A program made the translations under genes and the position numbers. Shown here piece by piece: positions 8,856 through 60,600 of a stretch of 64,000 nucleotides of DNA. The number at the start of each line of letters is the position of its first letter. Position 1 is the first letter of the stretch. The notes beneath the pieces are model-generated. The model saw nothing but the letters and a program-made list of their open reading frames with translations. It did no database searches and was not told where the DNA came from. Origin of the DNA: Scenedesmus sp. PABB004 (Eukaryota); NCBI GenBank assembly GCA_014905635.1, contig JABVCE010000004.1, forward strand, positions 1,240,001 to 1,304,000. Direction: 5' to 3'.

Positions 8856-10060
8856 CGCTCGGCTGCCGCCTGCTCGGCTGCTGCCGCTGCTTTCCCCCCT
8901 CCCGCTGCCGCTCCCGCTCCCGCTGCCGCCGTCGACCGCGTCCTGCTGCCGCTGCCACGCGGCGGCCGCCGCGGCCGCGGAGTCGTCGCGCAGCGCGCGC
9001 CGCAGGTACGCCGCCTCGAGCACGGCGGTGAGCACGTCGCGCGGCGCCACGCCGCGCTGCAGGCTGACGGCGATGTGCTGCCCGCCGCGGTAGCGCTCCA
9101 GCCAGCGCTCGCGCAGCGCCCACCAGGGCGTCGCCTCGCCCGGCTGCAGCGCGAGCAGGTAGCGGCTGCGGCCGTACGTGTCGAGCAGCCCCGACAGCTG
9201 GCGCGGGTGCGACACCGCGCGCTCGAGCGGCAGGATGCGCATCGGGAGCAGGTTGTCGCCGATGTTGGGCGGCCCCAGCAGGCGCTCGCCGCTGCTGACC
9301 TGCTTGAAGCTCGGCACCTGCACACGCGCACGCGCGGGCGCGGGCCCGAGGGGCCGTCGGCGCCGCGCCGCCGCCGCCGCCGCGCCGCGCCGCCGCCGCG
9401 CCGGCGCGGCCGCCGCGCACCCGCCCGGTCGCGGTCCACGCCTCTGCGACCATCTCGGCGCGCTCGCGGTTGAGGCTGCGCAGCTGCACCGCCTTGAGCT
9501 CGTGGTAGATGCAGAACAGGTCGGCGACGCCGCAGATCGGAAAGGCGAGCAGCGGCAGCGCCATGCGCTGCGCCTCGCGGTGGCGCAGCAGGTAGTTGGC
9601 GGTCGCCGACACCGCGAGCGCGAGCGTGTCCATGACCATGTGCTGCGCCTGCGGCCCGCGGCCAGGGGGTGGGGGGGTGGGGGGGGGGGTGAGGACGGGC
9701 GCGGCGCGGCGCGCGGCATGGCGCGGCGCGCGGCGGGCGGCGCGCCGGCGGCGCCGCGCGCGCACCTGGGTCTTGGACGCGAGGTCAGCCATGTTGCCGC
9801 TCGCGCACAGCGCGGCCTGGAACGCGGGCTGCGTGCTCACAAACGTGGTCAGCCCGACCGCGCGGCCGACGTTGGAGACCGCGGTCAGCAGCAGGAAGTG
9901 GCTGGGGAAGCGGGGCGTGAGGAACTCGCAGGACACGCAGGCCGTGTAGAGCACGCTGGTCGTGAAGCGGAAGCGCTGCGCGGCGCCGGGCGCGCGCGGA
10001 GACAGGGCAGGGTCCAAGGGCAGGGCGGCGCGTCGGCGCGGGCGGCGCAAGCATACGCCC

Positions 10061-10130
<70 letters not shown>

Positions 10131-11385
10131 TGCGCCGCGCCTTGAGGTCGGAGTCAAACGCGTCGCCAAACTGCGTGGCCACGCCCATGCGCACGAGGCG
10201 GTTGATGCCGTCCTTGAGCATCCAGTTAATCGCGGCGCTCGCGGCGAGCGCCTTGCGCGCGCCCACGCCGACCGCCATCAGCAGGCTCTGCGTCGCAAAG
10301 TTCTGCAGCGTCGCGCTGAAGAAGCGCTGCGCGGCGGCGGCGGCGGCGGCGGTGGCGGCAGGCGGGCAGGTCGGCAGGGCCGCGCCGACAGGCGCCAGAC
10401 GCCCCGCCGCTGGCTGCGCCGCCAACGATGCCGCCGGCGGGCCGTCCCGTGCCGCCGCGCCGCTGCCGCGCCGCCGCCGCCGTGCCTGGCCGCAGCGCCA
10501 CTTGAGCCACTCCCAGTAGTCCTCAGTCACGTCCTCCCGGCGCGGCAGGAAGCTGGTGCGCACGTTCTCGCGCAGCCGGCTGAAGAAATCGTGCAGCCGG
10601 CCTGCGAGCCGCCGCGCCAGCGGCGGGCGCGTGTCGCGCCGCGCCGCTGCACGCCGCGCCGCTGGCCGCTGCGCAGCTGCCCGCCGCGCCGGGCGCCGCG
10701 CCGCCGCAGGCGCCCGGTCGCCCCGGCCAGCAGCAGCTTTGCGCGCCCGCCGCGCCGCTGCCCTGCCCCGCACCCGCGGGCGTGTAGCCCTGCTCCAGCA
10801 GGTCCTCGTTGATGGCCACCAGGCGGTGCCCGTCCCACGCAAACTGCTGGCTCTTGCCGCCTGCGCGCGGCAGCAGCAGCGCAGGGCAGGCACGCGGGCG
10901 CCGCACGGCTGGCACCGAGCCCAGGGCCGGCGGCGCTGCCTGCGCACGCTGGGCACGGCGCGCCCCGCGGCGCCGCGAGCACGACCCCGGCGTCGGCGCG
11001 CGCTCACCCCGGCGCGAGCCCACCGGCAGCAGCTGCAGGCCGTTGGCAGACGCCTGGCGGCGGGGCGGGGGGCGGCGCGTCGGCGCAGCCTGGCGGCCGC
11101 CGCGCGCGCCGCGCCCGCTGGCGGGGTGCTGCGACGGCGTCCTCGGGCAGCGGGCGCCCGGCTGCGGGTCCCCGAGGACCATGGCTTCCCGCTCACCGTG
11201 CTGGCCGCCGCAGAGGAGAGGCTGAGGGAGGCGAGCGGCGGCCGACGGCGGCGGCCGGCGCTGCCGCTGCTGCGGTCGGCCAGCGCGAACTGCAGGCCCG
11301 GCGCCGGGGCTCGCTGTTCGGACGGTACTGCCTGGAGCAGCACCAAGGCCGCGCCATCGCCGCCCGACGTCGTGAAGCGCGGCAT
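8622..11385 (-). CDS. ROOT UVB SENSITIVE (RUS/DUF647) family protein
   Basis: FLPRREDVTEDYWEWLKWR, ATQSLLMAVGVG, AAINWMLKDG, FDSDLKRFRF, GNMADLASKTQAQ and ELKAVQLRSLNRER are DUF647 hallmarks. The 5' end is less certain. Confidence 0.88.
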
Positions 11386-11710: not shown

Positions 11711-12490
11711 ATGGACGCCGACGACGGCGCGCCTCCGGCAGCGGCCGCGCCGGCCGCGCTGGCCCTGCTGATCTCGGCGGACGCGGCCGCGACGCTGTGC
11801 CTGGTGCTCTTCGCGTCAGACGGCCCGCTGCGCGACGCGCTGCTGCCCCGCACCGGCGACGCACGCCTGGACGGCGCGGCGGCGCTGGCCGACCTGCTGC
11901 TGCTCGCGCTGCTGCGCGGCGCGCTGGTGCTGCTGCCGCTCCTGCAGCCGCGCCTGCTGGCGTCGCGCGCCGGGCGCGCCGCCGCGGCCGCGGCGGCTGC
12001 GGCGATTTCGCTGTGGCTCTCCGCCAAGGGCGGCCTCGCACTGCGCCTGGCGCGCGGGCGGCACGAGCTGCCGGTGCCCGGCGTGGGCACAGTGCACGTG
12101 GCCGCGCTGCTCGCCGCCGAGCTGCTGGGCGTGTGCATGGCGTGGGGCCAGCTCGCGCTCGTCTGGGCCCACGCCGCCGAGCTCGGCGCGCCGGCGCCCG
12201 GCGGCGTCGCGCTGGCGCAGCAGCGCGCGCTGTTCGCGCGCGTCGCTAGCTGGGTGAGCAGCAGCGGCGAGGCGGCGGCCGGGGCGCTCGGGCCGGAGCT
12301 CACGGCGCCGTTACTGGACCTCGAACCCGACCCGGAGCGCCCGGCGTCGCCGCCGCTGTCGTTCACGTCGGCGCGGTCGCGCCCGCCGTCGGGGCTTGCG
12401 AGCAGCAGCAGCCTGGCCAGCGCGGTCACGTGCCGCTCGGCCACCCCACCGGGCGGTGGGGTGGCCGAGCCCGGAGAGGGCGCGCCGTGA
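11711..12490 (+). CDS. Intronless 4-TM membrane protein, possibly MENTAL/TMD0-like
   Basis: ATG 11711 (MDADDG), strong coding bias, four hydrophobic helices and a Ser/Pro-rich tail. Confidence 0.7.
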   Translation: MDADDGAPPAAAAPAALALLISADAAATLCLVLFASDGPLRDALLPRTGDARLDGAAALADLLLLALLRGALVLLPLLQPRLLASRAGRAAAAAAAAAISLWLSAKGGLALRLARGRHELPVPGVGTVHVAALLAAELLGVCMAWGQLALVWAHAAELGAPAPGGVALAQQRALFARVASWVSSSGEAAAGALGPELTAPLLDLEPDPERPASPPLSFTSARSRPPSGLASSSSLASAVTCRSATPPGGGVAEPGEGAP

Positions 12491-25902: not shown

Positions 25903-28900
25903 ATGAGCCGCCAGCGCGAGCAGAAGCTGGCGGCCATCTACGACGCCTTCGACGCGCGCAACTACAAGGTGCGGCGGCTCCGGGTCGCAACACGCTCGTC
26001 GTGACCCCGGCAACGCGCAGAGGCCGCCCGCTCGGCGCGGCGGCGCCCGCCGCCGCCGCGGCCGCCGCCGCTCGAGCGCCGCTGCTCGCGCCGCGCCGTG
26101 GCGCCCAGGGCGTGATCAAGCTCTCCACCGCCGCGCTGGCCAAGCACCCGGACGTGCATGTGTTCAAGGCGCTCAAGGCGGTCGGCCTGGAGCGGACGGG
26201 CCGGCTGGACGAGGCGCTGCAGGTGCGGCGGCGTTCGCAGTGCGCGCCGGCCGCGCCGCCGCGCGCGCCGCCCCACCACGCCGCGCCGCGCCGCGCCGCG
26301 CCGCGCCAGCTGACGGACGAGGTGCTGGCGGCGGCGCCGCCGGACGGCCACGTGCTCAACATGCTGCTGCTGGTGCTGAAGCCGGCTGGGCGCCCCGAGG
26401 CGCTGCTGCCGGCGTACGAAGCGGCGTGCGCCAAGGACCCCGGCAGCGACGAGCTGCTGCAGGGCCTCTTTGCCTGCCACGTCAGGTGGGGCACCGCGCG
26501 GCGGCGACGGGGCGCGGGGCGCGGGCGGGCGGCGCGAGAGCGCGCGCGGGCGGGGGCGCGGGCGCGGAGCCGCCGCTTCCGCCGTCTCGTGCGCAGGGCG
26601 TTTGCGTTCCGCGAGCAGCAGGCGGCGGCGATGCGCCTGTACAAGCAGCACCCCACGCCGCTCTACCAGTGGTGGGTGGTGGTCAGCCTCGCGCTGCAGG
26701 TGCACGCGGCGGCGGTGGCCGCGGCCCTCGCGGCGCCGCCGGGCGGCGACGGCGGCGACGGCGACGCAGCGGCGCCGCCGCCGGCGGGCCTGGGCGCCGA
26801 CAAGCTACTGCAGCTGGCGGAGGCCATGGCGGCGCGGCTGCTGGCCAAGGAGAGCAGCTGGGAGGCGGTCATGCTGTACCTGGGGCTGCTGCAGGCGCAG
26901 GTGGGCCGGGGCCGCGCGTGCGCGGCGCGGCAGGCGGTCGGCGGGGCGGCCGGCGGCGCGCCCGCGCGGCCGCCCACACATCCGCCCCCGCGCGGTCGCG
27001 CGCAGGGCAAGCACGACGTGGCGCTGGCGGCGCTGCGCGGCCCGCTAGGGGGCGCCATTTCGCTCGCTGCGGAGCGGCGCGAGGCCGAGGCGGCGCTGCT
27101 GCTGGCCAAGCGCGACCTGCCTGCGGCGGCGGAGCTCTACGCCGCGGCGCTGCAGGAGCAGCCGGACGACTGGGCGTCGCTGCTGCTCCTCCTCGACTGC
27201 GTGCTGCCGGGCACCGCGGCGAGCCGGCCCGCCATCACGAGCGCGGGCGTCGCGCAGATGCTGACCGGCGTGGAGGCGTGCACGCAGCCGGGCGCGCACG
27301 TCGGCGGGCTCGAGGCGCTGCTCGCGGACATGGCGCCGCCGGGTGCGGGCCAGGGCAGGAGCCGCGCGCGCGCACACACATGAGGCGCCCGCCCGCGCCA
27401 GCGCGCTCCGCGACGGGCGCGCTCTGACGGCGCCCTGACGGCGCCGCCCGCGCCCGCGCCCGCGCCCGACCAGGCGAGCCCGCCGGCCCCAGCGTCGAGG
27501 AGCGCCTGCGCGCGGCCGAGGCGGCCGTCGCGGCGCTGCCGGCCAGTGCGCCGGGCGGCGCCGCCAGCAAGCCCGCGCCGCTGCTGCGCGGCCCGGCGCT
27601 CGCAGCGGTCGAGCTCGCCAAGCGCCGGTTGCAGCTGGGGCTCGCCGACCAGCAGGCGCTGGCGGACGCGCTGCTGAGCTACCACGAGCGGTGCGGCGGG
27701 CGGCGGCGGGCGGCCCGCCGCGCGCGCGCCAGGCGGCGCCCTTGCGGCCGACGCGTGCACGCGCCCGCCGCAGGCTGGGGCACGTGATGAGCTGCGCAAT
27801 GGACGTGCGGGGCTACCTGCCGCTGCTGACCGGGGAGCGCCGCGCCGCGCTCGCGGCGGCGCTGGGCGAGCGCGCCGACGGCGCGGCGGCGGAGCTCGCG
27901 GGCGCGGGGCCGCCGCGCGCGGGCGACCGGGCGCAGGAGCGGCTGCTGCGCCGCCAGATGGCCGCGCTGCAGGTCGGGACCGCGGCACGCGCACGGCCGC
28001 TGCTGCTAGCAGCTGCGCGCGCGCCTGCGCAGAGGGCCCCTTCCCCGCTCACCCCGCTGCCCGCCGCCACCCTTCCCCTGCCTCCCTCTGCCCCCGCCTC
28101 CCCGCGTGCCCCTCCGGCGCGCGACCAGATCCAGGCCGACCTGGGCGGCCCGCCGCTCGCCGACGCGGGCGCGGCCGCGGCGGCCGGCGGCGCGCTGCTC
28201 GCGCGCTACGCTGCCGCGGCGCCGATGTACGGCGGCCTCGACGCGCGCGAGCGCGGCCCCGCGGACGAGCTGCTCGCGCTGTCCGCGGGCGCGCTCGTGC
28301 GCGGCGCGGCGCTCGCGGCCGGCCCGCGCGCGGCGCTGTGCTGCGTGCTGCGCGCCGCGCTCGCGCTCGAGGCGGGCGTGGTGCGGCGCCCCGTGTGCGC
28401 GCCGGCGCGGCTCGGGCTCGCCGCGCTGCACGGCCTCGGCCTCGGCGACGCGGCCGCCGCGGCGGGCCACTTTGCCGCGCTCGATGTCAAGCACATCCAG
28501 CACGACACGCTCTCCAGCCACCACCTGCTGCCCGTCCTGCTCGGCCTCGCCGACACCGCGCGCGCCGACGCGCTGCTGGGCGCGAGCGTCGCACTCGTGG
28601 AGGACCACCTGCGCGACGCGGGCGACACGCTGACCGCGGCGCTCAAGGCCGGCACGCACACCAAGGCCCTGGAGTTTGCCTGCTTCAAGGAGCGCCTGCA
28701 GCGCTCGCACAGCTACGTGCTCGCGCGCGCGGAGGCCGCGCTGCGCGGCGCGGCGGCCGCCGCCGCAACGGCGGCCGCCGCCGCAACGGCCGCCGCCGCC
28801 GGCGGCGAGCCGGGCGCCGCCGGCGCGGCGGCCGCGGCGGCCGCGGCGGCCGCGCCGCTCGCGCTGCTGGGCGCCGCCGACTGGCGGGGCATGCGCTTCA

Positions 28901-30245
28901 ACGACGACCTCACCACACGCCCGCCCTGGCTGCCGCCCATCCGGGGGCCGCGCCACCTCGCGGTGCTGCTGTGGTGGGAGCAGCTCGGGAGCGGCGGCGC
29001 CGGCGGCGCCGGCGCCGCCGCCGACGAGGGCTGCTGGTGGCAGCAGGTCGCCGCAGCCGAGGCGGACCTGCCGGCGGCAGCGGCGCTGCGCGCGAGCACC
29101 AAGGCGGCCGCGGCGCAGCGCTGGCTGCTGCCGCACCTGCTCGCGGCTGCGCTGCGCGGCGGCGGCGCCGGCGCGGTGCAGCAGCAGCAGCAGCAGCAGC
29201 AGCAGGCGCCCGCCCCGGGCGTCGCCGCGCTGCTGCCGCGCTACGCCGAGGCGCTCCGCACCAGCCCGGCGGGCCTCGAGTCGGAGTTGGCCGCCTGCTT
29301 CGCGGCCCAGCAGGCCGCCGACGGCAGCGGCGGCGGCGCGCCCGCGTCGCGCCAGCTGCAGCTGCTGCAGGCGGCGCTGTTCTCGCTGGCGGCGCCGGTA
29401 CAGGTGGGCGGCGCCGGCGGCACGCGCGCGCGCACGCGCTGCTGCGCGCGCACGCGCTCAGCCGCCCCGCGCGCACGCCCGGCCGAGCGCAGGAGCTGCT
29501 GGATGCCGCGCACCCCTCGGACGCCGCGGCGGCGGGCGCCAGCGAAGCCGCGGCGGCGGCGGCCTCGCTCGTCGCCGCGCGCGCGCAGCGGCTGGCGGCC
29601 GGCGTCGCGCAGCTGCAGCGGCTGCTGTGCGCGGCGCTGCGGCCGGGCGGCGCCGTCGCGGACGTGCTGCTGCCGGGGCACGCGCTGTCGCTGGCCCACC
29701 TGCTGCTCGACGAGGGCTTGTCCTGGGTGGCGCTCTGCCTCGAGGTGCGCGGCCGCGGGGCCGCGCACGCCCCGGGGCGCCGCGCGCAGCCGCGTGGGCT
29801 GCCGCTCACGCTCACGCGCCGCCGCCACCGCCGCCGCCGCCACTGCTGCCGCCAGGCCTGGTCGCGCAGCGTCAGGGCCGGCCGCAGCAAGCGCAAGGCC
29901 AAGCGCGCGGGGGGCGCGCAGCCGCCCGCGCCCGGCCCGCCCGAGGAGGCGCTCGCTCCCGCGCTGGCGGCGCTCGGCGGCCTGCAGGCGAGCCTGGCCG
30001 CCGCCTGCGAGGCCGTGGCGTCGGCGGCGGCCGCGCACGCCGCGGCGCAGGCGGGGCCGGGCGCGGCGGAGGCGGTCCTGGCGGAGCTCGGCGCCGGGGA
30101 GGTCGAGGCGCTCGTCGGCTGGGAGCCGCGCTGCGACGCGGTGGCCGTGCTGCGCGGCTCGCTCGCGGCGCAGCGTGGCGCGCTGACGGCGGCTGCCGAG
30201 GCGGCGGGGCGGCTCGCGGCGCGCGCCGCGCGCGTGGCGTGGTGA
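25903..30245 (+). CDS. NAA25: NatB N-acetyltransferase auxiliary subunit (NAA25/MDM20)
   Basis: KLAAIYDAFDARNYK, KALKAVGLERTGR, FREQQAAAMRLYK, LLQLAEAM, QPDDW, LDVKHIQHDTLSSH, FKERLQRS. Confidence 0.9.
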
Positions 30246-33678: not shown

Positions 33679-34303
33679 GCTGCGTGCGCTTTGCACTCCC
33701 AGCCGCCCCGTTGCGGGCGCTGGCGATCTGAGCCGCCACCTCGCGCCCGCCGTCGCTGCGGCAGAGCGCCGGCGGGGCGGCCTTGCGAACTTGCGGCTCT
33801 CGGCGCAGCTCTCGGCGCAGCGGCGACCCCTCCACCTTCGCCGTCGCCCCCGGGACCGCGCCATCTGGGCGGCCCGCGGCGCGACAGCGGTGCTGCAACT
33901 CAGCAGTCGCGCAGCCGACGGCGCGGGGTTCTCCGTCGGTGTCACGGCAGTGCCGCAGCAGCTCCCAGCGACCCAGCCTGGCCGGGACACCCGCAGCGCC
34001 CGCCCGCAGCGCGCCACGCCGCCCGCAGCGCGCGATCCTGCCCGCCGCCGCTCGGCAGCGCCCGCCAGCTGCCGCCGCCGCACGCCGCGTCGGCGCCGCT
34101 CGACAGCGTGCCCCGGGTGACGTTCTTGAGTGGAGGGCAGTGGCCACGTGCGGCTCGCGGCGCGCCTGGAGCCGCGGGCGGGCTGCTGCGCGGAGCAGCG
34201 CGCATCATAGATGGGCGCTTTCCCTCACCCGCGGCCCCAGCCGGGCGGCCCCGGCCGGCCATAGCGCTGAAGGAGGGCCAGGCGGGCCGGAACGAGCCGC
34301 GCC

Positions 34304-36074
34304 ATGCCCAGCTGGACGGCGGCCGGCTGCGCCGCGGCAGCGTGGCAGCAGGTGCCGCCTGCTCCGCCAGATGCCGCGGCGCTGGCGTTCGCGCTGCCGC
34401 CGCCGACGGCGCGGCGGCGGCGCCTGAACCCCCTGAGCCAGCGCGGGGGCCGTGCTGCGGCGCCGCTGCTGCTGGCGTCGCTCACAACCGCCAGCAGCGC
34501 GGCGGCGTGGGGCGCGGCACCGCAGCAGGACGGCGCCGGCGGCGCGCGGCCGCGCGGCGGCCTGCTCGGCACGCGGCCGGCGCCGCGGCAGCGGCAGCAG
34601 TCGGAGCGGCAGCACCAGGAGCAGCAGCAGCAGCAGCAGCAGGAGGAGGAGGAGGCGAGCGAACGACGGCGGCCACGCCACGCCGAGCAGCAGCAGCCTC
34701 AGCAGCAGCACGGCGGCGGGCTGCCGGGCCTGCTCGCGGCGTTTGCGCAGGGCAAGCTGCTGCTCGCGGGCGCGATGGCCGCGGTGGTGTCGCGCACCGC
34801 GATGGCGCCGCTGGAGCGCGTGAAGATGGACCTGCTGCTCAAGGCCAGCAACCGCTCCGCGCTCGCGACCGCGGCGTGGGTGCTCGAGCGCGAGGGCATC
34901 GGGGGGTTCTGGAAGGGCAACGGCCTCAACCTGCTGCGCACCGCGCCATTCAAGGCGCGCGGCGGCGCGCAGCGGCCCGGGGCCAGCGGGCGCGCGCCGC
35001 GGCGCCGGCGCCGCCCGCTCGGCCCACAAGGCCGCCGCGCGGCCGCCCGCCCGCCCCGCAGGCACTGAACTTCTTTTCCTTTGACGTGTATAGCAAGCTC
35101 CTCGCCGGCATCACGGCCGACGGCAACAACTCGGCGCGCTTCCTGGCGGGCGCCATGGCGGGTGCGCGGCGCGACGCGGCGCGTGGCGGCCGCCCAGGCG
35201 CCCCCCCCCCTCCCGCAGCCGCCCGCCGACGCTCCGCCCCGCCGCGCCGCCCCAGGCATCACCGCTACGCTCGTGTGCTTCCCGCTGGACGTGCTGCGCA
35301 CGCGCCTCATGGCGCCGTTTGGCCACAACTACGGCGGCCCGCTGCGCACGCTGCAGGGCATGGCGCGCCACGAGGGCCTCGGCGCCCTCTACGCAGGTAC
35401 AGCGCCGCCGCCGCGCCGCGCCGCGCCGCGCCGCGCCGCGCCGCGCCGCCGCTCGCGTGCCGCGCCGCCCGCGCCCGCGCCGCACCCCCCGCGCCCGCGC
35501 CGCGTTGACGCCGCGCGCGCGCCTCCCGCGCGCCTCCCCAGGCTGCGTGCCCGCGGTGATCGGCATGGCCCCGAGCGGCGCCGTGTTTTACGGCGTGTAC
35601 GACCTGCTCAAGACGCGGCACCTCGCCGGCGGCGCGCACGGCGGCGAGCTGCCCGTGCCGTACACGCTGCTCTACGGCGCGCTCGCGGGCGCGGCGGCAG
35701 AGTCGATCCTGTACCCGCTGGAGGTCGTGCGGCGCAAGATGCAGCTGCAGAGCATGGCCGCCGCGGGCGCGGCGGCCGCCGCGGCGGCGCGGCCGCCGCC
35801 GGGCGGCGGCTCGCCGCTGCCCGGCGCCGCGGCGGCGGCCGCGCTGCGCGGGCACGCGCTCAAGGCCGCGGGCGGCGCGCTCGCGCCCGGCGGCGCCGGC
35901 GCCGGCGCCGGCGCGGCGGCGCGCATCGCGGCCGCGTGCGCCGCCATCCTGCGCGCCGACGGCGCGGGCGGCTTCTACGCCGGCCTGCTGCCCAACATGC
36001 TGCAGGTCCTGCCCAGCGCGGCGCTGAGCTACGGGACGTACGAGGGCATGAAGTCCGCGCTCGGCGCGGTGTAG
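34304..36074 (+). CDS. Mitochondrial carrier family adenine nucleotide transporter (BT1/BTL3-like)
   Basis: Three carrier signatures (APLERVKM, FPLDVLRTRL, YPLEVVRRKMQ) plus GFWKGNGLNLLRTAPFKALNF. Confidence 0.88.
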
Positions 36075-36510
36075 CAGCGGCAGGCCGGGCGCGGCGCGGG
36101 GCCGCAGAGATGCGGCGCGGCGGCGCGCAGCTGCTGTCACGGCGCGGTTGCGGGGCGCGAGTTGCGCGGCGCGACCATTGGGGGGGGGGGCTGTCTGCCG
36201 CGGCCGGGCGTCGCATGCGCGGCGGCGCGGGCTGGGCGCTGAGCACTGCTCGCAGGAGGCGGTCAGCGGTGTTTTGGTGCGATGGGTTGGCGGCTGGGAC
36301 GGCGCGCCAGCATGCGCTGGTGCGCGTGCAAGCGATATCGGTGCTCGCGTCAATCCGTTACGTGCCCCGAGCCCCGCCGCCCCACGCTGCAGCCCGCACC
36401 TGCCCCACCCACACACAGCCCCACGCGCTCGCCGCAGCGCCCCCGCGCCGTCCGCTGCGCCTGCAGCGGCCGGCGCGGCCGCGCCGCGCGCCGCGCGCCG
36501 CGGCCGCCGC

Positions 36511-37772
36511 TCAGGCGGACGCGGGCGCGGCGGCCGGCGCGTGCGCGGCGCGCACGGCGTCGAGCGCGCCGCGCTCGAGCACGATGGTGTCGGCGTTGAG
36601 CACGTCATACACCTGGATCGCGTCGGCGGTGTTGATCGCCAGCCGCGCGACGTTGCGCCCCGCGAGCGAGACCGCCTCGTTGGCCTCGGACAGCACCAGC
36701 AGCGTCTTGCGCGCCGGGTCGGCGCCGACCGCGGCGAGCGCGGCGACGAGCGACTTGGTGCGGCCCTTGTCGCCGCTCACGGCGGCGGCGAGGCCGTCCA
36801 CGACGACCATGTCGCCCGCCGCGCTCTGCAGCGCGGTCGCGAGCGCGAGGCGGCGCTCCTTCTTGTTCATCTTGATGCTCCAGTCCTTGGGCTGCGCGGC
36901 GGCGCGGCGGCGGCGGGCAGGGGGGCAGGAGCGGCGCGTGAGCGGCGCGCGGCGCGAGCGGGGGAGGGGGCGGCCCGGCGGCCGCCGCGGCTGCGTGGCG
37001 GCGGCGGCGGCGGCCCGCTGCCCCGCAGCTGCTGCTGCTGGAGCCTCTGCTGCAGCTGCTTGGGGTTCAGGGATTCCAGAAGCCAAGGCCCAAGCAGCTG
37101 CAGCAGAGGCTCAAGCTGCAGCTCTCCCGCCGCTGCTGCTGCTGCGCCCGCTGCCGCCGCCGCCGCTGCGAATCCTGCCGCCGGCGCCGCCGCCGCGGCT
37201 GCTGGAGCGCGCCGGTCCCATCTGTCGCCCCCTGCCGCCCCTGCCGCCGCGACGGGCGGCAAGGACGCTGCCACAGGCGGCAGCCGCCGCACCTTGGGGC
37301 CGAACGTCACGCCGCCGCCCGGGAAGAGCGGGGAGGTGCTGCTGCCGCGCCGGGCGTTGCCGGTGCCCTTCTGCTTGTATGGCTTCTTGCCGCCGCCGCG
37401 CACCTCGCTGCGCGTGAGCGTGCTCGCGGTGCCCTGTGGCGGGCAGCGAGGCGGCTCAGCCCGGCCGCCCCGGGGCCGCGCGGGCGGCGCGCGCGATCCC
37501 ATTGGGCGACACCTCACCCGCCGCGCGTTCTGGCGCACGTAGACCAGGTAGCGGTGCACCAGGCCCTTGGCGGTGGCGGGGCCGGCCGTCTTCAATGCCA
37601 GCTGCTCCTCGCCCGCCGCCGCGCCGTCGGCCGACTTGACCGCCACGGACGCGGGCGCGGCCTCCACCGCCGCGCGCACCGCCACCACGGGCCGCGCGGC
37701 CGGGCGCGCGGGGCGCACGCCGGCGGCCCCGCCGCTCAGGGCCCGCCCCGACAGGCGCTGTGCCGCCTGCAT
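36511..37772 (-). CDS. RPL4: Nuclear-encoded plastid 50S ribosomal protein L4
   Basis: Transit peptide, then [44 protein letters not shown]...[29 protein letters not shown]. Confidence 0.95.
37031..37122 (-). ncRNA. Candidate intronic miRNA-precursor-like hairpin
   Basis: Perfect 24-bp inverted repeat (37041-37064 vs 37089-37112) with a 24-nt loop, extending about 10 bp outward with 2 mismatches, inside RPL4 intron 36892-37292. Function is unproven. Confidence 0.55.
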
Positions 37773-38096
37773 TGCGTGTCACGGGCCTGCTGCTCAGCCG
37801 CTGCGCCGTGGGTGTGGAGTGGCGGGCGGGCGCGCCGCAGCGACGAGGGAGCGACCGGAGAGATGCTTGGGGCTCAGGTCACGGCCCGGCAAGGCACAGG
37901 GAGGCAGCCGCACCGGGCGCGACCGACCGACCGCGACTCCCTGTGCTCCCAGGCGGCACGCGGGGGCCTGCAGCCGCCGCCGCCCCACCCGCCCGCGCCG
38001 CCGCTGGCCGCGCGCGGGCAGCGCGGCCGGGGCGCTGTGATGGCGCACTCAGAGCTCGCAGGTTGCACCCTTGCCGCGCCGACTCACGGCCTGCAG

Positions 38097-39062
38097 TCAA
38101 CGCTCGCGTGCAGGTGCGCCTGCGGGCGCGGCGCGGACGTGCGCGCGTGAGCGCGCGCGCGCGTGCCGGTCGGGCGGGGCGCGCCCCGCCCGCCCGCGCC
38201 GGCGCAGCAGGCGAGCGCCGCGCTCGCGCACCACCGCCTGCAGCAGGTGGCGCTGCTGCTCCGCCGGAGCCGTCCCGTCCAGGAGCAGCTGCTGCATCGC
38301 CGCCGCCTCGCACGACGCGCCCGTGAGCCACCGCGCCGCCTCTGCCACGCCCGCCGGCGGCGCCCAGCCCGCCGCCGCCGCCGCCGCCGCCGGCCCTGAC
38401 GCTGAGGCTCCGCCGCGCGCGCGGGGCGCCTGGGCGTGCAGGGCCGCGGCGACGCTGGCCAGGCCCTGCACGCCCTCCGCGTCGGAGCGCATAACAAAGA
38501 GGTCCAGGCAGACGTGGCACGTCACGAGCGTGAGAAATTCCCGCGACGCCGCCGGGTCCGTCGGCGCGGCGCCGCTCGCCTCGACCAGCAGGCAGCCCGG
38601 CGCGGCGCAGGGCGCGGCGGCGTCCGGGGGGCAGCAGCGCGCCGCGGCGCGGCGGTGCACCGCGGGCGACGCGACGAGCTTGAGGAGCGCCGTCGCGTCC
38701 AGCGCAAACGCGCTGCCGCCCCAGTCCAGCACGACGCGGCCGCCGGCGCCGCCGGCGTCCAGCTGCTGCAGCCGCACGCGCGCCGGCAGCGTCGACGACG
38801 GCGGCGCGCCGCCGCCGCTGGCGGGCGCCGCCGGCTGCCGCAGCTTTATGAACACCGCGTCGCCCGCGCGCGCGCCGCGCCACTCCTTTTGCTGCGCGTC
38901 AAACTGCTCGGCGAAGGACTCGTGGAAGGCGGTGCTGCAGTCGAACGCCGCCGCCCGATCTTCCAGCTTCGCGCGCTTGCCGGCGGGCGGCTCGCCGCCG
39001 TCCGGCGCCGCAGCCGGCGTGAGCAGCGTGCGCAGCGCGGTAAAGAAGAGGGGAGCCTCCAT
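38097..39062 (-). CDS. Hypothetical protein; 3' end uncertain
   Basis: ATG 39062 (MEAPLFFTALRTLL), about 300 codons of globular-looking coding-biased sequence, NLS-like GKRAK. Confidence 0.6.
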   Translation of the reverse strand: MEAPLFFTALRTLLTPAAAPDGGEPPAGKRAKLEDRAAAFDCSTAFHESFAEQFDAQQKEWRGARAGDAVFIKLRQPAAPASGGGAPPSSTLPARVRLQQLDAGGAGGRVVLDWGGSAFALDATALLKLVASPAVHRRAAARCCPPDAAAPCAAPGCLLVEASGAAPTDPAASREFLTLVTCHVCLDLFVMRSDAEGVQGLASVAAALHAQAPRARGGASASGPAAAAAAAGWAPPAGVAEAARWLTGASCEAAAMQQLLLDGTAPAEQQRHLLQAVVRERGARLLRRRGRAGRAPPDRHARARSRAHVRAAPAGAPARER

Positions 39063-39248: not shown

Positions 39249-40707
39249 ATGAGGCGGGCGCTGCCGGCCCTGCGCCAGCTGCAGGCCGCCGTGGCAGGTG
39301 CGGGGGGCGCAGTGACCGGCTCACGGGCTGCCGCGGGGGGCGGCGGGCGCTGCGGGGGCCTGGCCCGGGCGGCAGCCACCCCACCCCAGCGAGATCGGCA
39401 GCAGCCGCCCGCCCCCGCGCCCCACGGCCGCGGCGAGGCGAGCCCGCGGGGGAGTGCGCTGGGCGTGGCGTGCGCGCCCCCGGGAGCGCCCCACGCCCTG
39501 CGCAGCGGGGCGGCGCCGGCAGCAGCGGCCGGGGCGCGGCGCGCCGCCGCGCCCGGCGGCGGCCGCCGGGGCGGGCGTGATCTGGCGCCCGGCTGCGGCG
39601 CCTGGCGCCGGCCGAACGCTCGGACGCCGCCGCCGCTGACGCACGCACGCGCGCGCCCGCGTCCGCGCGGCGTCCGCGCGGCGCCCGCAGGCGGCAGCCG
39701 CGCGGCAGAGGCAGGCTGCCTGCAGGCGAGCCGCGGCCTGAGCAGCCACAGCTTTGCCGGCTTCGCCGACGCGCCGCCGCCGGCGGGCAGCAGCGCGATC
39801 AGCATCAAGGCGTCGGGCGACGGCAAGACCGTGAGCGTGGACGTCACCGCTGGCCGCGCGTCCGCGCGGGCGAGCTTCGCCGCGAGCGCCGCCAAGAAGT
39901 GCGCGCGCGCGCGGGGCGGGGGGCGCGGGGGGCGCGGCAGGCTCGCTGCCCCGCGCGGCAGGGGCGGCGGCGGCGGCGGCAGGAGCGGCAGCGGCGGCAG
40001 GGGCAGCGCCGGCACCGCGGGCGGCGGCGACGCCGCGGGGCCGGCGCGCGACGCCCGCCCGCCCGCCCGCGCGCGCGCGCAGGCTGCAGGCGTCCCCGCT
40101 GACGCTGCACGAGGCGGCGCGCGTGAGCGTGCTGCACGCGTCGCTCATGGAGTACCTGCTGCGCCTCGCGCACGAGCGCTACGCGCTGCTCGCGCAGTGG
40201 CCAGACTTCACTGCCATGCTGGGCAAGGACTACTACTACCGGTGCGCCCCCGCACGGCGCCGCCGCCGCCGCCGCCGCGGGCGCCGGCGCCCAGCGGCCG
40301 TGAGCGCGCTGCCGCGCGAGCGCCGCCGCCGAGGCTCGCGCGCCCGCGCGCCGCCGCTGCCGCGGCGCAGGTCCCACCCCGAGGAGGTGCGCAAGTTCTA
40401 CGCGCTCGTGGACGAGTTCCACCGCATGTGGGACGTGGTCACCGAGTTTGACTCGCTCAGCCACCTCGCGACGCAGATGGTGCCGGTGCGTGCCACGACT
40501 CCCGCGGCGCGGCGCGGCGCGGCGGTGCAGCGCACGGGCCGCGCCAAGCCGCCGCGCCCGCCACGCGCGCGCTCACGCCGCGCCGCCGCCGGGACGGTGG
40601 ACGCGCAGGGCTACCGCCGGCGCCGCATGAACGTGCTGGGCCCCGCGGTCAGCCCGACCGTGGCCAACGGCGTCGTCACGCAGTTCCTGCTCGCCAAGGC
40701 GGCGTGA
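39249..40707 (+). CDS. Mitochondria-targeted protein; tentatively an alga-specific complex I accessory subunit (NUOP3-like, from recall only)
   Basis: Presequence MRRALPALRQLQ; five exons with clean GT-AG junctions (LLAQWPDFT..GKDYYYRSHPEEV..FHRMWDVVTEF..GYRRRRMN..VVTQFLLAK); TGTAA downstream. The CDS is solid, the name is not. Confidence 0.7.
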
Positions 40708-40786: not shown

Positions 40787-41013
40787 CACCAGGGCGTGCG
40801 GGCGTGCGCCGCGCCGGCGCGGCGTGACAGCGGCAGTGCGACGGCCGTGGCGGGGTTGAGCGCGCCGCGGCAGCTGCTGCCGCCGCCGCCCGGGACGCCC
40901 GCCATCATCAAAACCCGAGTCGCAGGCCCCCGCGCGCGCTGCGGGAGCTGCCGCGCTCGGTCAAGCTGTTGTGAAGCCAGCGCGCTGCCCCGCCACGCAG
41001 CTCGGTGACCGCG

Positions 41014-44000
41014 ATGTTGGAACCGCACTGGGCCAGCTGGCCCAACGTGCGGCACTCGCGCGGCGCGGAGGGCGAGGTGCGCGAGATGCCGCGGCAGTTT
41101 TTTGCTGTTCCCGCGCCCTCCGGGCCCGACCGACCGCGTCTGCGCGCCGTCCGTCGCCAGCAGGAGGAGGAGGAGCAGGAGGAGGAGGCGCCGGACCATG
41201 AGGCGCTGCAGCGCTGGCTCGCGGCGCTGCCGGGTGCGGCGCGGCGGCGCCGGCGCTGCTGTAGCGGGCGGCGGGGCCCTGCGCAGCCGCCCCCGCCCGC
41301 CCGGCAGCTGGTTGCTGTGCCCGCCCGACGCCCGCCGCCGCGGCGGCCGCCGGCGCCGCAGTGAGCGACGAGGGGCTGCTGGTCGTCGCGTCGGACTCGC
41401 TGCGCCTGCTGCCGCCGGGCCTGCCCTACGCGCTGCTGGGCCCCATGCTGCTGGCGGCGCTGGACGGCGCGCTCGGCGGCGGCGGCGGCGGCCGCGGCCG
41501 CGGCCTCGCGCTGCGGGGCGTCGACCTGTGCGAGCCGGTCGTCGGCGCGCTCGCGACGGCGGCCGCCGCGTACGGTGCCGCGCTGCGCGGCCTCAGCCTG
41601 GCCGAGCTCAACGTGGACGTCCCGGCCGCGCGCGCGCTGGGGCGCGTCGCGTGCCTGCGCAGCCTCGCGCTGGACGGCGTCTTCCTGTGCGAGCACGCGT
41701 GGCGGGGCCTCGCGGCGGGCCTCGCGGCAGGCTGCCGCCTGCGCGCGCTCGCCGCGCGCGGCTGCCTCACCCTCGCCGGCGCGGCGGCGCTCGCGGCGGC
41801 GCTGCCGGCGGGCTGCGGGGAGCTGCAGGAGCTGGACCTCGCCCGCACCAGCCTCCTGCCACCGGCGGCGGCAGCGTGGCAGGGCGACGGCGAAGCTGCC
41901 GCCGCTCGCGCGGCCGCCGACGCAGCATGGGCGGGCCTGATCCAGGCCGTGGCGCGGGGGTGCCCCGCGCTGCAGTCGCTGGTCCTGGCCGGCTGCGCCT
42001 GCCTGGGCCCGGCGGGCGCGGGCGCGCTGGCCAAGCTGCTGCGCGCCAAGGGCTGCAGCCTCACCGCGCTCGACCTCTCGCAGTGCGGCGGCCTGGGCGC
42101 GGTGCGTGCGCGGCGGCGGGCAAAGCGGCGCCCGCGCGCCGGGGGCACGCCGGCAGCGCGTGCGCCGCCCGCCGCGTCGCTCACCCACCCCCTGGCCCCG
42201 CCCGTGCCTGCCCCCCGCTGCCGCGGCAGGCCGCGCTGGCGGCGCTGGCGGGCGCCGCCGCGGGCTGCGCATCGCTGGAGCTGCTCGACCTCAGCGGCAC
42301 GGGCCTCACCGACGCCGCTGCCAAGCCCCTGGCAGCCGCGGGCGGCTGGCTGGGCCGCGCCGGCCCGCGCCGGCTCGCGGAGCTGAGGCTGGGCGCCAAC
42401 CGGCTGAGCGGCGCGGCGGCGGGCCAGCTGGGGCGCTGCCTCGCCGCCGGGGGGCTGCCGGCGCTGCGCCGGCTCAGCCTCGCCGGGTGCTGCGAACTCG
42501 GCGACGCCGGCGCGACCGAGCTGGCCGCCGCGCTCGTGTCGGCGCGGTGCGCCCTGGCCGCGGTGGACCTGTCCGGCTGCGAGCTCACCGACGCCGGCGT
42601 CGCGGCGCTCACCGCGCTGCTCGCGCCGGGCGCCGCGGGCGCGCCGCGCGGCGTGGCGCTGCGGGAGCTGCGGCTCGCCGACAACCAGCTGACGGAGGGC
42701 GCCATGGAGATGCTGGCGCACTGCGTGGCCGCGCCGGGCTGCGCGCTGAGCCTGCTGGACGTCAGCCACAACTGGACGGGCCCGCGCGGCATGGCGCCGC
42801 TCGCCGACGCGGCGGCGGCGGGCGCGGCGTGCGGCGGGGGCGAGGTGCAGCAGCGGCCCGGGCTCACGCTGCTGCGGGAGTGCCTGCCAGAGTACTGGCG
42901 GGTGGAGGCCTCCAAGGCGGCCGCAGCGGCAGCAGCGACGGCAGCGGCGGCAGCGGCAGCAGCAGCCAGCCCGGCGGCGGCGCGGCCACCCCGCGCGGAG
43001 TGCGGCTGGGCGCCACGCAGCCTAGCCGGCAGCAGCAGCGCGTGCAGCGTCTGCTCCAGCGGCAGCTGGCGCACGCTCGCGGGCTCCGCGGCCGGCAGCG
43101 AGCCGCGGTCGGCGGCGGCGGCCGGCAGCGAGCCGTGCGCGGCGGCGGCGCTGTCGCCGTGCGCCGCCGCCGCGGCGCCGCCGGCGCTGCCGCCGCGCGC
43201 CGGCAAGGCTGCGCTGGAGGAGGGCGGCACGGTGTGGCTCGTCAACACGCTGTATTCAAGCGCCGAGTGCGGCCCGCTCTCGCGCGCGGCGTCGTCGGCC
43301 ATCGCGGTCGGCCTCGACCCGGCGGCGGGCGCCGGCGACGGCGGCGGCGCCGACGCGGCGAGTGACATCTGCGAGCACTATGCTGACAGCGCCAGCGACG
43401 ACAGCGATGCCGGCGGCAGCCCGCTTGGCAGCGCGGGCAGCGGCGGCCGCGGGCCGCTCGCGCCCGCCAGCAGCGGCGGCAGCAGCCTGGGGCTCGCGGA
43501 CGGCGCGTGGCTGCTGCGGGCCGGGGCCGACGGCGCCGCGCCGGCGCAGGAGGCGCGCGCGCAGCAGGCGAGCCCCTACAGCCTGCGCACGGCGGCAGAG
43601 GCGGCTGCGGCGGCCGCCGCCGCCGCGCGGCGCATGCAGGCGCAGGCGGGCCCCGGCAGCGCGGCGGGCAGCCCTGCCGCGCGCGAGGCGGCCGCGGACG
43701 CCGCCGCGCGGCGCTGCGGCGACGGCCGGCTGAGCGCCAGCCCCATGCGCCAGTTCGCGCCGCGGCCGCCGGCGTCGCTGCCGGGCAGCCCTGCGAGCGC
43801 GGCGGGCGGCGGCGTGCCCACGCCGGGGCTCAAGACGCTGCGCAGCATGCGGCGGCGCGTGAGCGGTGGCCCGGCGACGCCGCCGGCGGGCGTCGCCGCG
43901 GCCGCGACCGACCAGCGCGGCGGCGTGAGCCCGGCCCGCGGCGGCGCCGCCGCCGCGGCGCCGGCGGCTGGTCACGGCGGCAGCCCAGGGCAGCAGCGGC

Positions 44001-44095
44001 AGGTCAAGGCGGTCGCGCGCTCGGTCACTGACGGCGCGGCGGTGCGCGACAGCGGCAGGCAGCACTGCGCCGCGCTGCCCCGGGTCTGCGACTGA
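41014..44095 (+). CDS. Leucine-rich repeat protein (RNI/NLRC3-like repeats)
   Basis: Repeats LQELDLART, LTALDLSQC, LELLDLSGTGLTD, LAELRLGANRLS, LRELRLADNQLT, LSLLDVSHN; disordered C-terminus. Confidence 0.85.
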
Positions 44096-51131: not shown

Positions 51132-51448
51132 CTACCGCTGCCGCCGCTGCTGCTCGCCTGTCATCTCGCCGCCTGCTCGGCGGGCCTCCGGTGCAGCCAG
51201 CAGGCTGGGGTTGGCCACCACCGCCGCTGCCACGTCCGCGGGCGGCAGCCCCGACTGCGCCTGCATGCTCGCGAGGCGCGCCAGCAGCAGCTCGGGCGGC
51301 CGCAGCAGCAGTTGCGGGTTGGCGAGCGCCAACGCGCGCACAGCAGGCGGCGCGGGGGGCGGCGGCTGCCACGCGGCGCCCGACCGCTCTCGCCGCAGGC
51401 GCTCCTGCGCCGGCGGCAGCTGCCGCCGCCCGCCGCCGACGCCGTTGT

Positions 51449-51480
<32 letters not shown>

Positions 51481-52414
51481 TGCGCCGCGAGCTGCTGCAG
51501 CTCGCCCAGTAGCTCCAGCGTCCGCTGCCAGTGGCTGCTTGCGGGCAGCAGCGCCGGCTGCTGGGCGACCAGCGCGGCCAGCTGCGCGTGCTCCAGGCCG
51601 AGGGTCGCCGCCATGGCCTGCAGCCGCCGGCGCAGGTGCTTGGCGCCCCACGACAGCAGCAGGGGCTCCTGCAGCACGAGCTGGCGCCGCGACGGCGGCG
51701 GCGGCGGCAGCGACTGAGCTGGCGCGCAGCTGCGCCCTGCACCGCGCGCGGGCCGCGCGCCCGCCGCACCTGCGCCACGTCGGCGCCCGGCCCGAGCGCG
51801 AGCCGCAGCTCGCCCACGCGCGCCTCAAACTCGGCCAGCGACACGCCCAGCAGCTTGGGCCGCGCCGCCAGCGCCGCCGCGAGGCGCGCCGGCGGCACGG
51901 CGAGGAGGCCGGCCATCTCGCGCAGCTTGTCCGCCAGCCGCGCGTGGTGAAAGTTGGCCAGCGGCGGCCACGCGCGCAGCATCGCGGCCGCCGCCGCCGG
52001 CGTCACCCCCAGCGCGGCCGCCAGGCTGGCGGGGCGGCTGCGCGCGTGCCGCGCCGCGTTGGCGCCCGCCGCGCCCGGCGGCGGCAGCGGCGCGCCGTCG
52101 CCGGGCTGGGCGGGCGGCGCCGGCGGGCGCGCCGGCTGGGCCGGCTGCGCGCCTGCGTGCGTCAGCGCGCAGGGGTGAGCGGCGTGCGGCCGCGTGCCGG
52201 CGGCGGCGGCAGCAGGAGCGGCAGCAGCGGCGCCGACGCTCGCACCCGCCCACTGGCTGGGCCGGACGATCAATGGTCGCGCCGCGCCGTCGGGAGATCG
52301 GAACGCCTTCGAGCGGGCGCCGCGAGCTCCGCCGCGTGCGGGGCGGCCGCTGGCCGGCGCGACGCCGCGGCTGTCGGCGTGCGCTGCTGCCGCCGGCGCC
52401 GCCGCTGGACGCAT
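51132..52414 (-). CDS. mTERF-like helical repeat protein, probably organellar
   Basis: About 35-aa repeats ending in xPxLL (RAWPPLA, ARPKLL, QEPLLL, QQPALL, ANPQLL, ANPSLL); R/A/S-rich N-terminus; in-frame intron 52153-52245. Confidence 0.7.
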
Positions 52415-57663: not shown

Positions 57664-60600
57664 ATGGCGGGCGCCCGGCCGCTGGCCGCCCGGCTGAGCG
57701 GCGCGGACGCTGAGCGTGACGTCCCCGATGATGCCGGCAGCACGTGGAAGTCGCCCGCGGGCGCGTTGGCCGCGGGCAAGCGCGCCAGCACCGCGCTCCT
57801 CGAGCCCGTCCCGCTCAGACGGCCGTCGGCGTCCGGCGACGGATGCCCCGTCGACGCCAGCCCGGCGCCGGGCAGCGAGCGGGCCGAGCGGTGGGTGGGC
57901 CCGGCGGCGCCAACAGCAGCGGCGCGCCGCGCCGCCGGCGGTTGCGCGCCGGGCCGCGACGCCGCCGCCGGGGGCGCCCGCGGCGCCGCCTGGCCGCCCC
58001 GCACCTCCCACGGCGCGCCGGGCCTGAGCTGCCGCCGCTCGTTCAAACGCTCGCGCAGGCGCAGCAGCGGCGGCGCGGGCCTCGCGGGCCTGCGCGCGGC
58101 GCTGAGCAGCGAGGGCGTGCGCCTGGCGGCGGCCGGCGGCGGCGGCTCGTCGCTCGACTTTGCGCGCATGGCCGCGGAGCTGCAGGAGCGCACGTCGCGC
58201 ATCACGAGCCTGCAGCGCCGCCAGGAGCAGATCGACGCGCTGCGCTCGTCTCGCCTCGCGCTCGCGGCCGGTGCGCGACAACCGGCGCGGCGGCGGCGCG
58301 GCCAGCCGGCAGCGGCGCTCTGTCGGCCGCGACCGGGCATCGCCGCCAACGGCCGCCGCCGCCGCCGCCGCCGACCCGCAGGCGGACCGCGGCCCGACAG
58401 CAGCGTGGACGGCGGCGGCGCGGCGACGCCGTCGGCGGCCGCGGCGCCACCGGGCAGCCCGGGCGGCGCGCTCGGCAGCCCTGCGGCGCGCTCGGGCAGC
58501 AGCCAGATCGCTGCCCAGCTGTTCAGGGTGCGCCACGCGGCCGCGCGGCGGCGGCCCCGGCCCCGGCAGGCGCCGCAGCGCCCCCACCGCGCGCCGCACC
58601 TCCCGCGCCCTGCTCCCTGCTGCCCGCCCCAGGCCGCGCCCGACATCGTGCCAGAGCTGCAGGCCAAGCTCGCGGCGTTTGAGGGCAACCTGCGCCAGCT
58701 GCGCGCCGCGTCGGCGGCGGGCGCCGCGGGCCGCGCGGCGGCGCTGAGCACGCACAGCAGCACGGAGCAGCCGCCCACGCCGGCGCGCGCGCTGGCTGGC
58801 GCGCCGCCGCCGCAGCCGGCGCAGGCGCCGCCGCAGCCGCCGGCGCCGGGGCTCGCGGCGGCGGCGGCGCTCGCGCAGGCGGGGCTGGTGCAGCTGCAGG
58901 AGGTCACCGCGGTGTCGGCGGCGCTGCGCCCCGTCGTTGCGAGCGTGAGCGGCGCGGCGGCGGACGTGCAGCGGCGGCTGGTGGAGCTGGACAGCTTCTT
59001 CAAGCAGCACCCCCAGTTTTACGACGCCGCGGCGCTGCGGCACCTCGTCGCGGCGCACAAGCAGCTGCAGCAGGAGCTGTTTGCCAAGGAGCAGGCGCTG
59101 GACGCGGCGCTGGGCGCGGTGCGCGAGGCGCGGCACACGCCCGCCGACAAGCGCGCCGCGGCGCTGCAGGGCGAGGTCGCGCTGCTGCGCGAGCAGCTGC
59201 GCGCGCGCGACGCCGCGCTCGCGGCGGCGGAGGAGGACAACCGGGGCCTGCGCGAGCAGCTGGGCCTGCCGGCGCGCAGCGGTGGCGAGCGCGGCGAGCT
59301 GTCGCCCGCGCCCGGGGGTCAGCACTTCTACGGCAGCCCGGGGAGCAGCGCCGGCGGCGGCTCGCCGTGCGTCGGCCGGCGCCTGTGGGCGGCGAGCGAC
59401 GACGGCGACGGCGACGGCGCCGAGGCGGGGCAGCACAGCAGCACGGCCAGCCTCGCGAGCAGCTGCACCGCCAGCAGCCGCGGCGGCGGCGCGGCGGCGG
59501 CGGCGCGCCCGGCCGGCGGCGACGTGCGGCAGCTGGCGCTGCACCAGGCGGCGCTCGCGGCAAAGGACCAGGCGGTGCAGCAGCTCACGGCGCAGGTTGA
59601 GGAGCTGCAGGCGGCGCTCGACGCCGCGCGGCTGCAGCGTGAGCGCGCGGACGCGGGGCGGGTGTGGGGGCGGGGGGGGGGGGGGGGGGTCGTACCCGCA
59701 CGCGTGCTGCTCAGCGGCGCGCCTGCCGGCGGCGTTCGCGTTCCTTGGCCCTCTCCCCCATCTAACGCCCCGCCGCCCGCGCCGTGCCCGCACCGCGCTC
59801 GCAGCGCCGCGCGCGGCGTCGCCGCCGGCGGGGCCGCCTGCGCGGCCGCTGCCGCGGCCGCGCAGCATGCCGGAGGCGCTGCAGCAGCTCGGCGAACTGC
59901 AGCAGCTCGTGGGCAGCCTGCAGGCGCAGCTCGCGGACGCGGACGCGCGCGCGGCGGCGCGCGCGGCGGAGCGCGAGGCGACCTTCCGGCGTCAGCTGGA
60001 GGTTGAGAAGAAGCAGCACGAGTTCACGCGCACCGGCGCCCAGCTGCTGCAGGACCAGGTGGACCAGCTCGGCGAGCGCCTCGCGCTCGCGCGCGCGGCG
60101 GAGCTCTCGCTGCAGGCGCAGCTCGAGCGGTCGCAGCGCGAGGCGGCGCAGGCGCGCGCGGCCGCGCAGGGCGGCGGCGCGGCGAGCCCCGGCGCCGGCG
60201 ACGGCGACGGCGACGCGCGGGCGGCACACATGTTGCAGCTGCAGGCGCACGTGCAGGAGCAGAAGCAGGCGCTCGCAGCGCTCGGGGCCTGCCTGCAGGG
60301 CCTGCACGCGCGGCTGCGCGGCGCGGGGCGGCTGACGGGCCCCTGGCCGCCGCCGGGGCCGCAGCAGGCAGCGGCGCTGCGGCAGCTGGAGGAGGGCGTG
60401 CAGCACCTGCTGGAGCAGGCGGCCGCCGGCAGCAGGCGCAGCAGCAGCGCCGGCGGCGGCGGACGCGACCGGCCCGAGCAGCGGGCGCAGCCGACGGGCG
60501 CCGGCGGCGAGGCGGCCGCTCCGGCGGGCGGCGACGACGCCGCGGCGCTGCGCGCGGCGCTGGCAGAGGCGCGGGACGCGAACGAGCAGCTGCTGGCGAA

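Follow-up and report, generated by a model that had tools for sequence, protein, structure and literature searches.

What is a perfectly paired hairpin doing inside an intron of a plastid ribosomal protein gene? The hairpin in question lies in a 64-kb stretch of DNA with a GC content of 79.3% (the whole stretch analysed, hereafter the window), within the second intron of a nuclear gene for plastid-type ribosomal protein L4 (uL4c) that is read from the minus strand. It belongs to a known class of element, the intronic perfect hairpin. The initial annotation had called it miRNA-precursor-like and had inferred a small-RNA gene hosted by the L4 gene.

The L4 gene model around the hairpin is now solid. 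Exon 1 (37518-37772, minus strand, with the ATG at 37772) codes for the beginning of L4, preceded by an N-terminus that resembles a transit peptide; this N-terminus can be aligned with the N-termini of relatives, and tblastn searches with exon 1 match the relatives' loci. Intron 1 (37434-37517, minus strand, 84 nt, GT..AG) corresponds to the 84 nt skipped in one relative's RNA contig, which joins 37432 to 37517 (CT..AC on the plus strand), and an intron at the same site is read through in two relatives (P0018 and P0019). Exon 2 (37293-37433, minus strand, 47 codons) matches positions 31-77 of the Pfam Ribosomal_L4 profile with an E-value of 1.3e-18, and relatives' RNA contigs span exactly 37293-37434/5, stopping at the exon borders. 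Exon 3 (36511-36891, minus strand, 126 codons plus the stop) encodes the C-terminal part of L4 and matches profile positions 78-188 (E 1.1e-22). As the two Pfam segments abut, the borders of intron 2 (36892-37292, minus strand) are exact.

The 401-nt second intron of plastid L4 that had been proposed for this locus is thereby upheld. It carries GT at 37292-37291 and AG at 36893-36892 on the minus strand, and once the proposed introns are removed the Ribosomal_L4 domain is contiguous, which identifies the product as L4 by Pfam. The best named relatives of the host protein are chlorophycean uL4c proteins; over exon 3, identity is 76% to Scenedesmus sp. NREL 46B-D3, 75% to Tetradesmus obliquus, 66% to Monoraphidium minutum and 59% to Chlamydomonas reinhardtii, which places the alga among the Chlorophyceae, near the Sphaeropleales. 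ORF callers run straight across introns in algal DNA of 79% GC.

Comparison with related genes bears on the age of intron 2. Among the ORFs of 35 relatives, seven (P0076, P0081, P0085, P0088, P0094, P0103 and P0036) break at the same site, between Q and P(K/R)DW. These include P0076, at 81% exon 3 identity the closest relative found, which has an intron at this position, and P0036, whose frame reads through an intron of ~240 nt there. Twelve of the 35 continue uninterrupted through GPKPKDW, some of them possibly being transcripts, and the other 16 begin at MNKKERR and are uninformative on intron 2. In a metagenome scan, exons 2 and 3 were both found in 78 of 80 loci and were contiguous in all 78, mostly distant intronless genes of 29-45% identity. 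An intron-1-like gap is present in 18 of these 78 loci, marking them as nuclear genes that lack intron 2; the empty site in these 18 intron-bearing relatives fits either loss or an older gain. One of these 18 is the best metagenome match (L001), whose sequence at the site is CCCAAG^CCCAAGGACTGG. On these comparisons, the position of intron 2 is old and patchily retained.

The CCCAAG repeated at the exon ends belongs to the codons of the conserved GPK-PKDW peptide and is not a target-site duplication. A recent gain of the introner type is ruled out by the old position shared with the seven relatives' ORFs, and the rest of the 64-kb window contains no similar intron. Old as the position is, the 28 residues available from the 3′ end of the P0076 intron show no likeness to intron 2 of the window, which argues that the intron sequence turns over fast and that sharing of the hairpin among relatives is not to be assumed.

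Reading of the sequence and a repeat finder (pair I3) both reproduced the coordinates of the perfect 24-bp inverted repeat that had been described: its arms, 37041-37064 and 37089-37112, enclose a loop of 24 nt. The extension of pairing to 37031 and 37122 with two mismatches was borne out as well, so that each arm reaches 34 nt, at 94% complementarity. Read along the L4 pre-mRNA (minus strand), the 5′ arm is 37089-37122, the loop 37065-37088 (54% GC) and the 3′ arm 37031-37064. The stem is unbranched and consists of 24 perfect base pairs, eight of them A:T, and eight more pairs interrupted by two symmetric 1x1 mismatches.

The hairpin is real and exceeds chance expectation. For loops of up to 150 nt, no other perfect inverted repeat in the 64 kb is as long, the runner-up being 18 bp long and 100% GC, and the longest such repeats in simulated sequences were 21 bp (25 order-5 Markov sequences) and 18 bp (25 triplet-block shuffles). 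A 116-nt core on the L4-sense strand folds at -76.2 kcal/mol (z -4.8), a value equalled by none of 200 shuffles. The opposite strand folds at -74.4 kcal/mol (z -4.9), and structure alone therefore assigns no strand. The raw energy of the hairpin is merely among the best 5% of windows, because stretches of 90% GC reach about -90 kcal/mol; after correction for GC content, it is the top outlier among 2556 minus-strand windows of 100 nt (z -5.5, the next being -3.2). A search of the 64-kb window for the arm at up to three mismatches returned only its own two sites, with none expected.

In composition, the hairpin stands apart from its surroundings. The less GC-rich island noted in the initial annotation was confirmed: the 72-nt core is 62.5% GC, within the lowest 2.4% of 72-nt windows, and the 100-nt flanks of the hairpin are 87-91% GC in an intron that is 80-90% GC overall. 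Tandem Repeats Finder reports degenerate trinucleotide arrays on both sides, at 36896-37014 (GCG)n, at 37028-37060 (GCT)n and at 37148-37196 (CCG)n. Read as RNA, intron 2 has a G-rich 5′ half containing (GGC)n and (CAG)n and a C-rich 3′ half containing (GCC)n, and the sign of the GC skew switches across the intron.

The explanation that we favour, and to which we give an even chance, sees in the hairpin a young palindrome, specific to this lineage and of mutational origin, that sits in a repeat-rich old intron and is spliced out with it. A piece of roughly 72-92 nt with atypical composition (62% GC) would have become an inverted repeat within the GC-rich intron by inverted duplication, by template switching or through the arrival of a small foldback insertion. 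The hairpin would then be transcribed within the L4 pre-mRNA, where a near-perfect stem of 32-34 bp would be predicted to sit atop a looser (GGC)n:(GCC)n stem formed by the whole intron, and it would be removed together with intron 2, having no dedicated function. Should a nuclear Dicer-like enzyme exist in this alga, any small RNAs cut from the hairpin would be a by-product.

Several features point this way. The arms are fully complementary over 24 bp and decay at once outside, with two mismatches in the next 10 bp, the pattern expected of a recent event. Both arms and loop are compositionally foreign to the intron, which fits an inserted piece. Taken together, the perfect stem, the foreign composition and the repeat-rich, fast-evolving intron are best fitted by a young mutational palindrome, whose mode of origin, youth and lack of function we infer. 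The simple repeats around the hairpin are mutationally unstable, which we count in favour of this reading, as we do the imperfect direct repeat that flanks the unit at a 104-nt spacing, the frequent (GCC)n/(GGC)n inverted pairs elsewhere in the window, the fast turnover of the intron sequence and the lack of surplus complementary sites in the window. A protein-collection search with the in-frame translation of the hairpin region brought up no related ORF, all 26 candidates lying above E 10; covering one frame and one length class, it weighs little.

Perfect hairpins are documented to arise by template switching (Monttinen et al., 2023; PMC10710096). Such hairpins are likewise short perfect inverted repeats with small loops that originate in one step in non-coding DNA, and they are potential raw material for new miRNAs. 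The odd composition of arms and loop at the present locus, by contrast, fits a foreign insertion better than a local copy of intron sequence at 85-90% GC; neither a target-site duplication nor a second copy that would prove insertion was found in the window. Against the palindrome reading stand the top GC-corrected fold, a host gene that is expected to be highly expressed, and a setting that resembles the one in which Chlamydomonas miRNAs are born. A perfect stem with eight A:T pairs in DNA of 79% GC could equally be explained by selection for pairing.

A rival reading takes the hairpin for a putative intron-hosted precursor of a miRNA or hairpin-siRNA, which we regard as possible but doubtful. 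The 32-34 bp stem would be excised by a Dicer-like enzyme, from either the L4 pre-mRNA or the spliced-out intron, to release one ~21-nt duplex, whose strands would be loaded into Argonaute. A regulatory function would take up only the smaller share of the probability that we allow for small RNAs of either sort. The fuller claim, of a gene, co-expressed with plastid L4, for a miRNA or hairpin-siRNA in an extremely GC-rich relative of the Sphaeropleales, seems to us rather unlikely. To our knowledge, an intronic miRNA or hairpin-siRNA locus would be the first described in that green-algal order.

The shape of the hairpin argues for this possibility. The Axtell & Meyers 2018 criteria reportedly ask for a single unbranched foldback of <=300 nt whose duplex has <=5 mismatches, of which <=3 lie in asymmetric bulges; they are also said to demand a miRNA/miRNA* pair of 20-24 nt with 2-nt 3′ overhangs, >=75% precise reads and replicate libraries. 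With 92-116 nt, 32 bp, only two symmetric 1x1 mismatches, a 24-nt loop and no branches, the structure lies well below 300 nt and has the form of a plant-type miRNA foldback and of a Dicer substrate, and its fold is exceptional for its GC content. It is transcribed in the sense direction within an expressed gene, relatives' L4 mRNA being present in a metatranscriptome. Moreover, a newborn miRNA or hairpin-siRNA locus would show the same features as a young palindrome.

Precedent from Chlamydomonas also supports it. The statement that miRNAs of this alga often come from introns or UTRs agrees with the literature: of its high-confidence miRNAs, 61.1% are reported to derive from introns (nine) or UTRs (two) of mRNA precursors (Valli et al., 2016; PMC4817775). 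The closest parallel described there is cre-miR1157, a near-perfect stem-loop in a chlorophycean spliceosomal intron (that of Cre12.g537671) with the same orientation as its host, as at the present locus, and from which a functional small RNA has been demonstrated experimentally (Valli et al., 2016; PMC4817775). The present hairpin differs in being known from sequence alone and in coming from a different organism, a Sphaeropleales relative of ~79% GC. Chlamydomonas miRNAs are described as phylogenetically unconserved (PMC5511227), and missing conservation would thus not weigh against small-RNA production here.

Other lines of evidence fail to support a small-RNA precursor. Public RNA over intron 2 comprises only low-complexity (CTG)n/(GCC)n matches from other organisms; its source is one poly(A) biofilm metatranscriptome with 5% of the sampled words, represented by contigs, which is uninformative on small RNAs and speaks neither for nor against expression of the hairpin. 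The contigs of this collection include relatives' exon 2 at 85-95% likeness (with a cut-off of 85%). Contigs from other organisms, with short sides or foreign filler, account for the joints at 37015>37150 and 37044>37127. Rfam returned ten hits to nine unrelated miRNA-precursor families on both strands, all far below their gathering scores, the best being MIR862 at 40.5 against 100 bits. Since any perfect hairpin scores in this way, we regard these hits as generic and reject them as evidence; no homology to a known miRNA family was found. The near-equal folding of the two strands (-76.2 and -74.4 kcal/mol) likewise counts against a miRNA reading.

The proposal that the CAG/CTG-rich arms could target polyQ- or polyA-coding mRNAs found no support in the window. 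At up to three mismatches to any 21-mer of the hairpin, only two near-complementary loci occur in the 64 kb (51654-51677 and 59053-59079), as compared with a median of 26.5 for 60 random 92-nt segments; low-GC controls gave 0-3 loci in eight of nine cases and 40 in the ninth. Near-complementary sites are therefore not enriched, and the hairpin is instead unusually unique.

Nor does what can be gathered about the required machinery and about related algae lend weight to the small-RNA reading. A literature search on Dicer and Argonaute in the Sphaeropleales gave no relevant paper, and Pfam matches for 95 ORFs at 30-44.5 kb of the window included neither a Dicer-like protein nor Argonaute. The identifier of Chlamydomonas L4, Cre11.g479500, is absent from the nine supplementary files searched, of ten, that accompany the Chlamydomonas study (Valli et al., 2016). 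The sphaeroplealean Mychonastes homosphaera has a genome of 72.4% GC with 20% simple repeats and a mean intron length of 359 bp, and its annotation gives 'miRNA number 0' (PMC7354681); this zero weighs little, being homology-based.

If small RNAs are produced at this locus, intron-derived miRNA biogenesis, which in green algae has been worked out mainly for Chlamydomonas, would be extended past that genus and its near kin, and the locus would offer a clean example of a new hairpin gene born in an old housekeeping-gene intron. If the fuller claim above were true, plastid ribosome production would be linked to the silencing of transcripts with CAG/CTG-rich codons of the KQLQQ type. If no small RNAs are made, the hairpin is just another young palindrome within an intron full of repeats, and serves mainly to warn that perfect hairpins, together with generic Rfam miRNA matches, arise without function in such genomes.

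We consider it improbable that the hairpin belongs to a dispersed family of miniature foldback or MITE-like elements, one copy of which landed in the intron, with or without siRNAs. Insertions of this type do occur in introns, and some become hairpin-siRNA or miRNA loci. They resemble the present element in forming a compact intronic inverted-repeat unit whose composition is distinct from its flanks, here with a terminal-inverted-repeat architecture of ~92 nt and a composition foreign to the intron. An imperfect direct repeat (family D1) also flanks the hairpin, with a left copy at 37017-37043, of the form GCTNNCCCGCNGCTGCTGCTGCTG, and a right copy at 37121-37147, spaced 104 nt from the left one. 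When the copies are extended, 37121-37163 agrees with the reference copy 37017-37059 at 77% identity, and 21 of the first 27 positions match by eye. Both copies are of low complexity, and the repeat may be a weak hint of insertion or duplication or may be a coincidence.

The uniqueness of the sequence within the window counts against a dispersed family. No second copy was detected in the rest of the 64 kb with the arm at up to three mismatches, and the best other match found by blastn-short is 16 nt long; the viral contigs likewise contain no match to the arm. This comparison excludes only very abundant families, of more than ~2,000 copies by our own estimate for an assumed genome of ~50 Mb. 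In addition, the inverted repeat reaches the loop and is not confined to the termini, and no clean short target-site duplication is visible in the window.

Equally little credence attaches, in our view, to a role in splicing, in which the apical hairpin and a (GGC)n:(GCC)n basal stem would zip intron 2 and so shorten the distance from the 5′ splice site to the branch point and 3′ splice site. Shortening of the splice distance by stems has been proposed for long ribosomal-protein introns in yeast. As in the yeast zipper stems, a long intron is predicted to have its ends joined by internal pairing: the minimum free energy (MFE) fold of the entire intron on the minus strand is one long rod of -292.4 kcal/mol (z -6.5 relative to shuffles), and only three of 424 windows of 401 nt are lower. 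The first ~14 nt pair with the last ~15 nt, in line with the suggestion in the initial annotation that the flanking (GGC)n/(GCC)n tracts lengthen the basal stem, and the centre of the hairpin (~37076) is close to that of the intron (37092).

The single long stem follows, however, from a G-rich 5′ half facing a C-rich 3′ half, and at 79% GC nearly any 400 nt folds strongly: the window mean is -240 kcal/mol, and the GC-corrected z of the intron is -2.8. Unlike the pairing of the yeast stems, that of intron 2 is mostly simple-repeat complementarity, and such inverted pairs of G-rich and C-rich simple repeats, (GCC)n/(GGC)n, are frequent elsewhere in the window, which makes the basal stem a habit of this genome and not a special feature of the intron. 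In the predicted fold, the 5′ splice site would lie buried in the basal helix instead of being presented, and bridging does not require a perfect 24-bp apex. Finally, relatives cope without intron 2 (the 18 intron-bearing loci) or with a shorter one (P0036).

Four further candidates were set aside. The hairpin (37031-37122) is not a mirtron, as 170 and 139 nt separate it from the 5′ and 3′ splice sites, respectively. For an intron-hosted snoRNA, there is no Rfam snoRNA match with E <= 1 in 35000-39000 and no UGAUGA box recognizable by eye in the island. Autoregulation by binding of L4 to its own intron was discounted on general grounds, the protein having a transit-peptide-like N-terminus and acting in the plastid. 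An origin by inverted duplication of a target gene was rejected because the 16-nt exact match at 59058-59073 does not extend: the site agrees with the arm at 20 of 24 positions, without homology beyond. This match lies in coding sequence (HKQLQQEL) and is explained by the preferred codons for K-Q-L-Q-Q.

The introns of the plastid-type L4 gene differ strongly among relatives, both in presence and in length. Among the metagenome loci scanned with the L4 exons, L001 is the best match and the nearest relative at the genomic level, and it lacks intron 2 altogether (L001:575-590). Its intron 1 is 365 nt long (L001:76-440), compared with 84 nt in the window of Scenedesmus sp. PABB004, and this longer intron carries no notable inverted repeats.

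Gene calls based on open reading frames are unreliable in algal DNA this rich in GC. On the minus strand of the window, a frame of 303 codons (36870-37778) runs uninterrupted across the first two exons of L4, the intron between them and the whole of intron 2, and read-through of introns is also found in three L4 proteins called from relatives in the database (P0018, P0019 and P0036).

Just two loci in the window lie within three mismatches of any 21-mer of the intron 2 hairpin, a count not above that obtained with random segments of the window. One, at 59053-59079 on the plus strand, has an exact 16-nt match to the hairpin and falls within sequence coding for HKQLQQEL; the other is at 51654-51677.

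A mitochondrial-carrier gene identified by Pfam (Mito_carr, 34271-36071, plus strand) is convergent with the L4 gene. As its final repeat ends near 36071 and the L4 stop codon is at 36511, leaving approximately 440 nt between them, the 3′ UTRs of these two genes may overlap. Also on the plus strand, a long open frame with Pfam matches to leucine-rich repeats (LRR_6) occupies 41009-44092.

Tracts of (GCC)n and (GGC)n are common across the window as long imperfect inverted pairs spaced 50-250 nt apart, examples being located at 10057-10395, 28784-29039, 39900-40289 and 51422-51733. Given this frequency, strand-switching simple repeats appear to be typical of the Scenedesmus sp. PABB004 genome as a whole. 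Besides the L4 intron hairpin, the sole notable hairpin of the 64-kb window that is not a simple repeat is at 12435-12470, where a perfect 16-bp stem encloses a 4-nt loop (GCTCGGCCACCCCACC / GGGC / GGTGGGGTGGCCGAGC).
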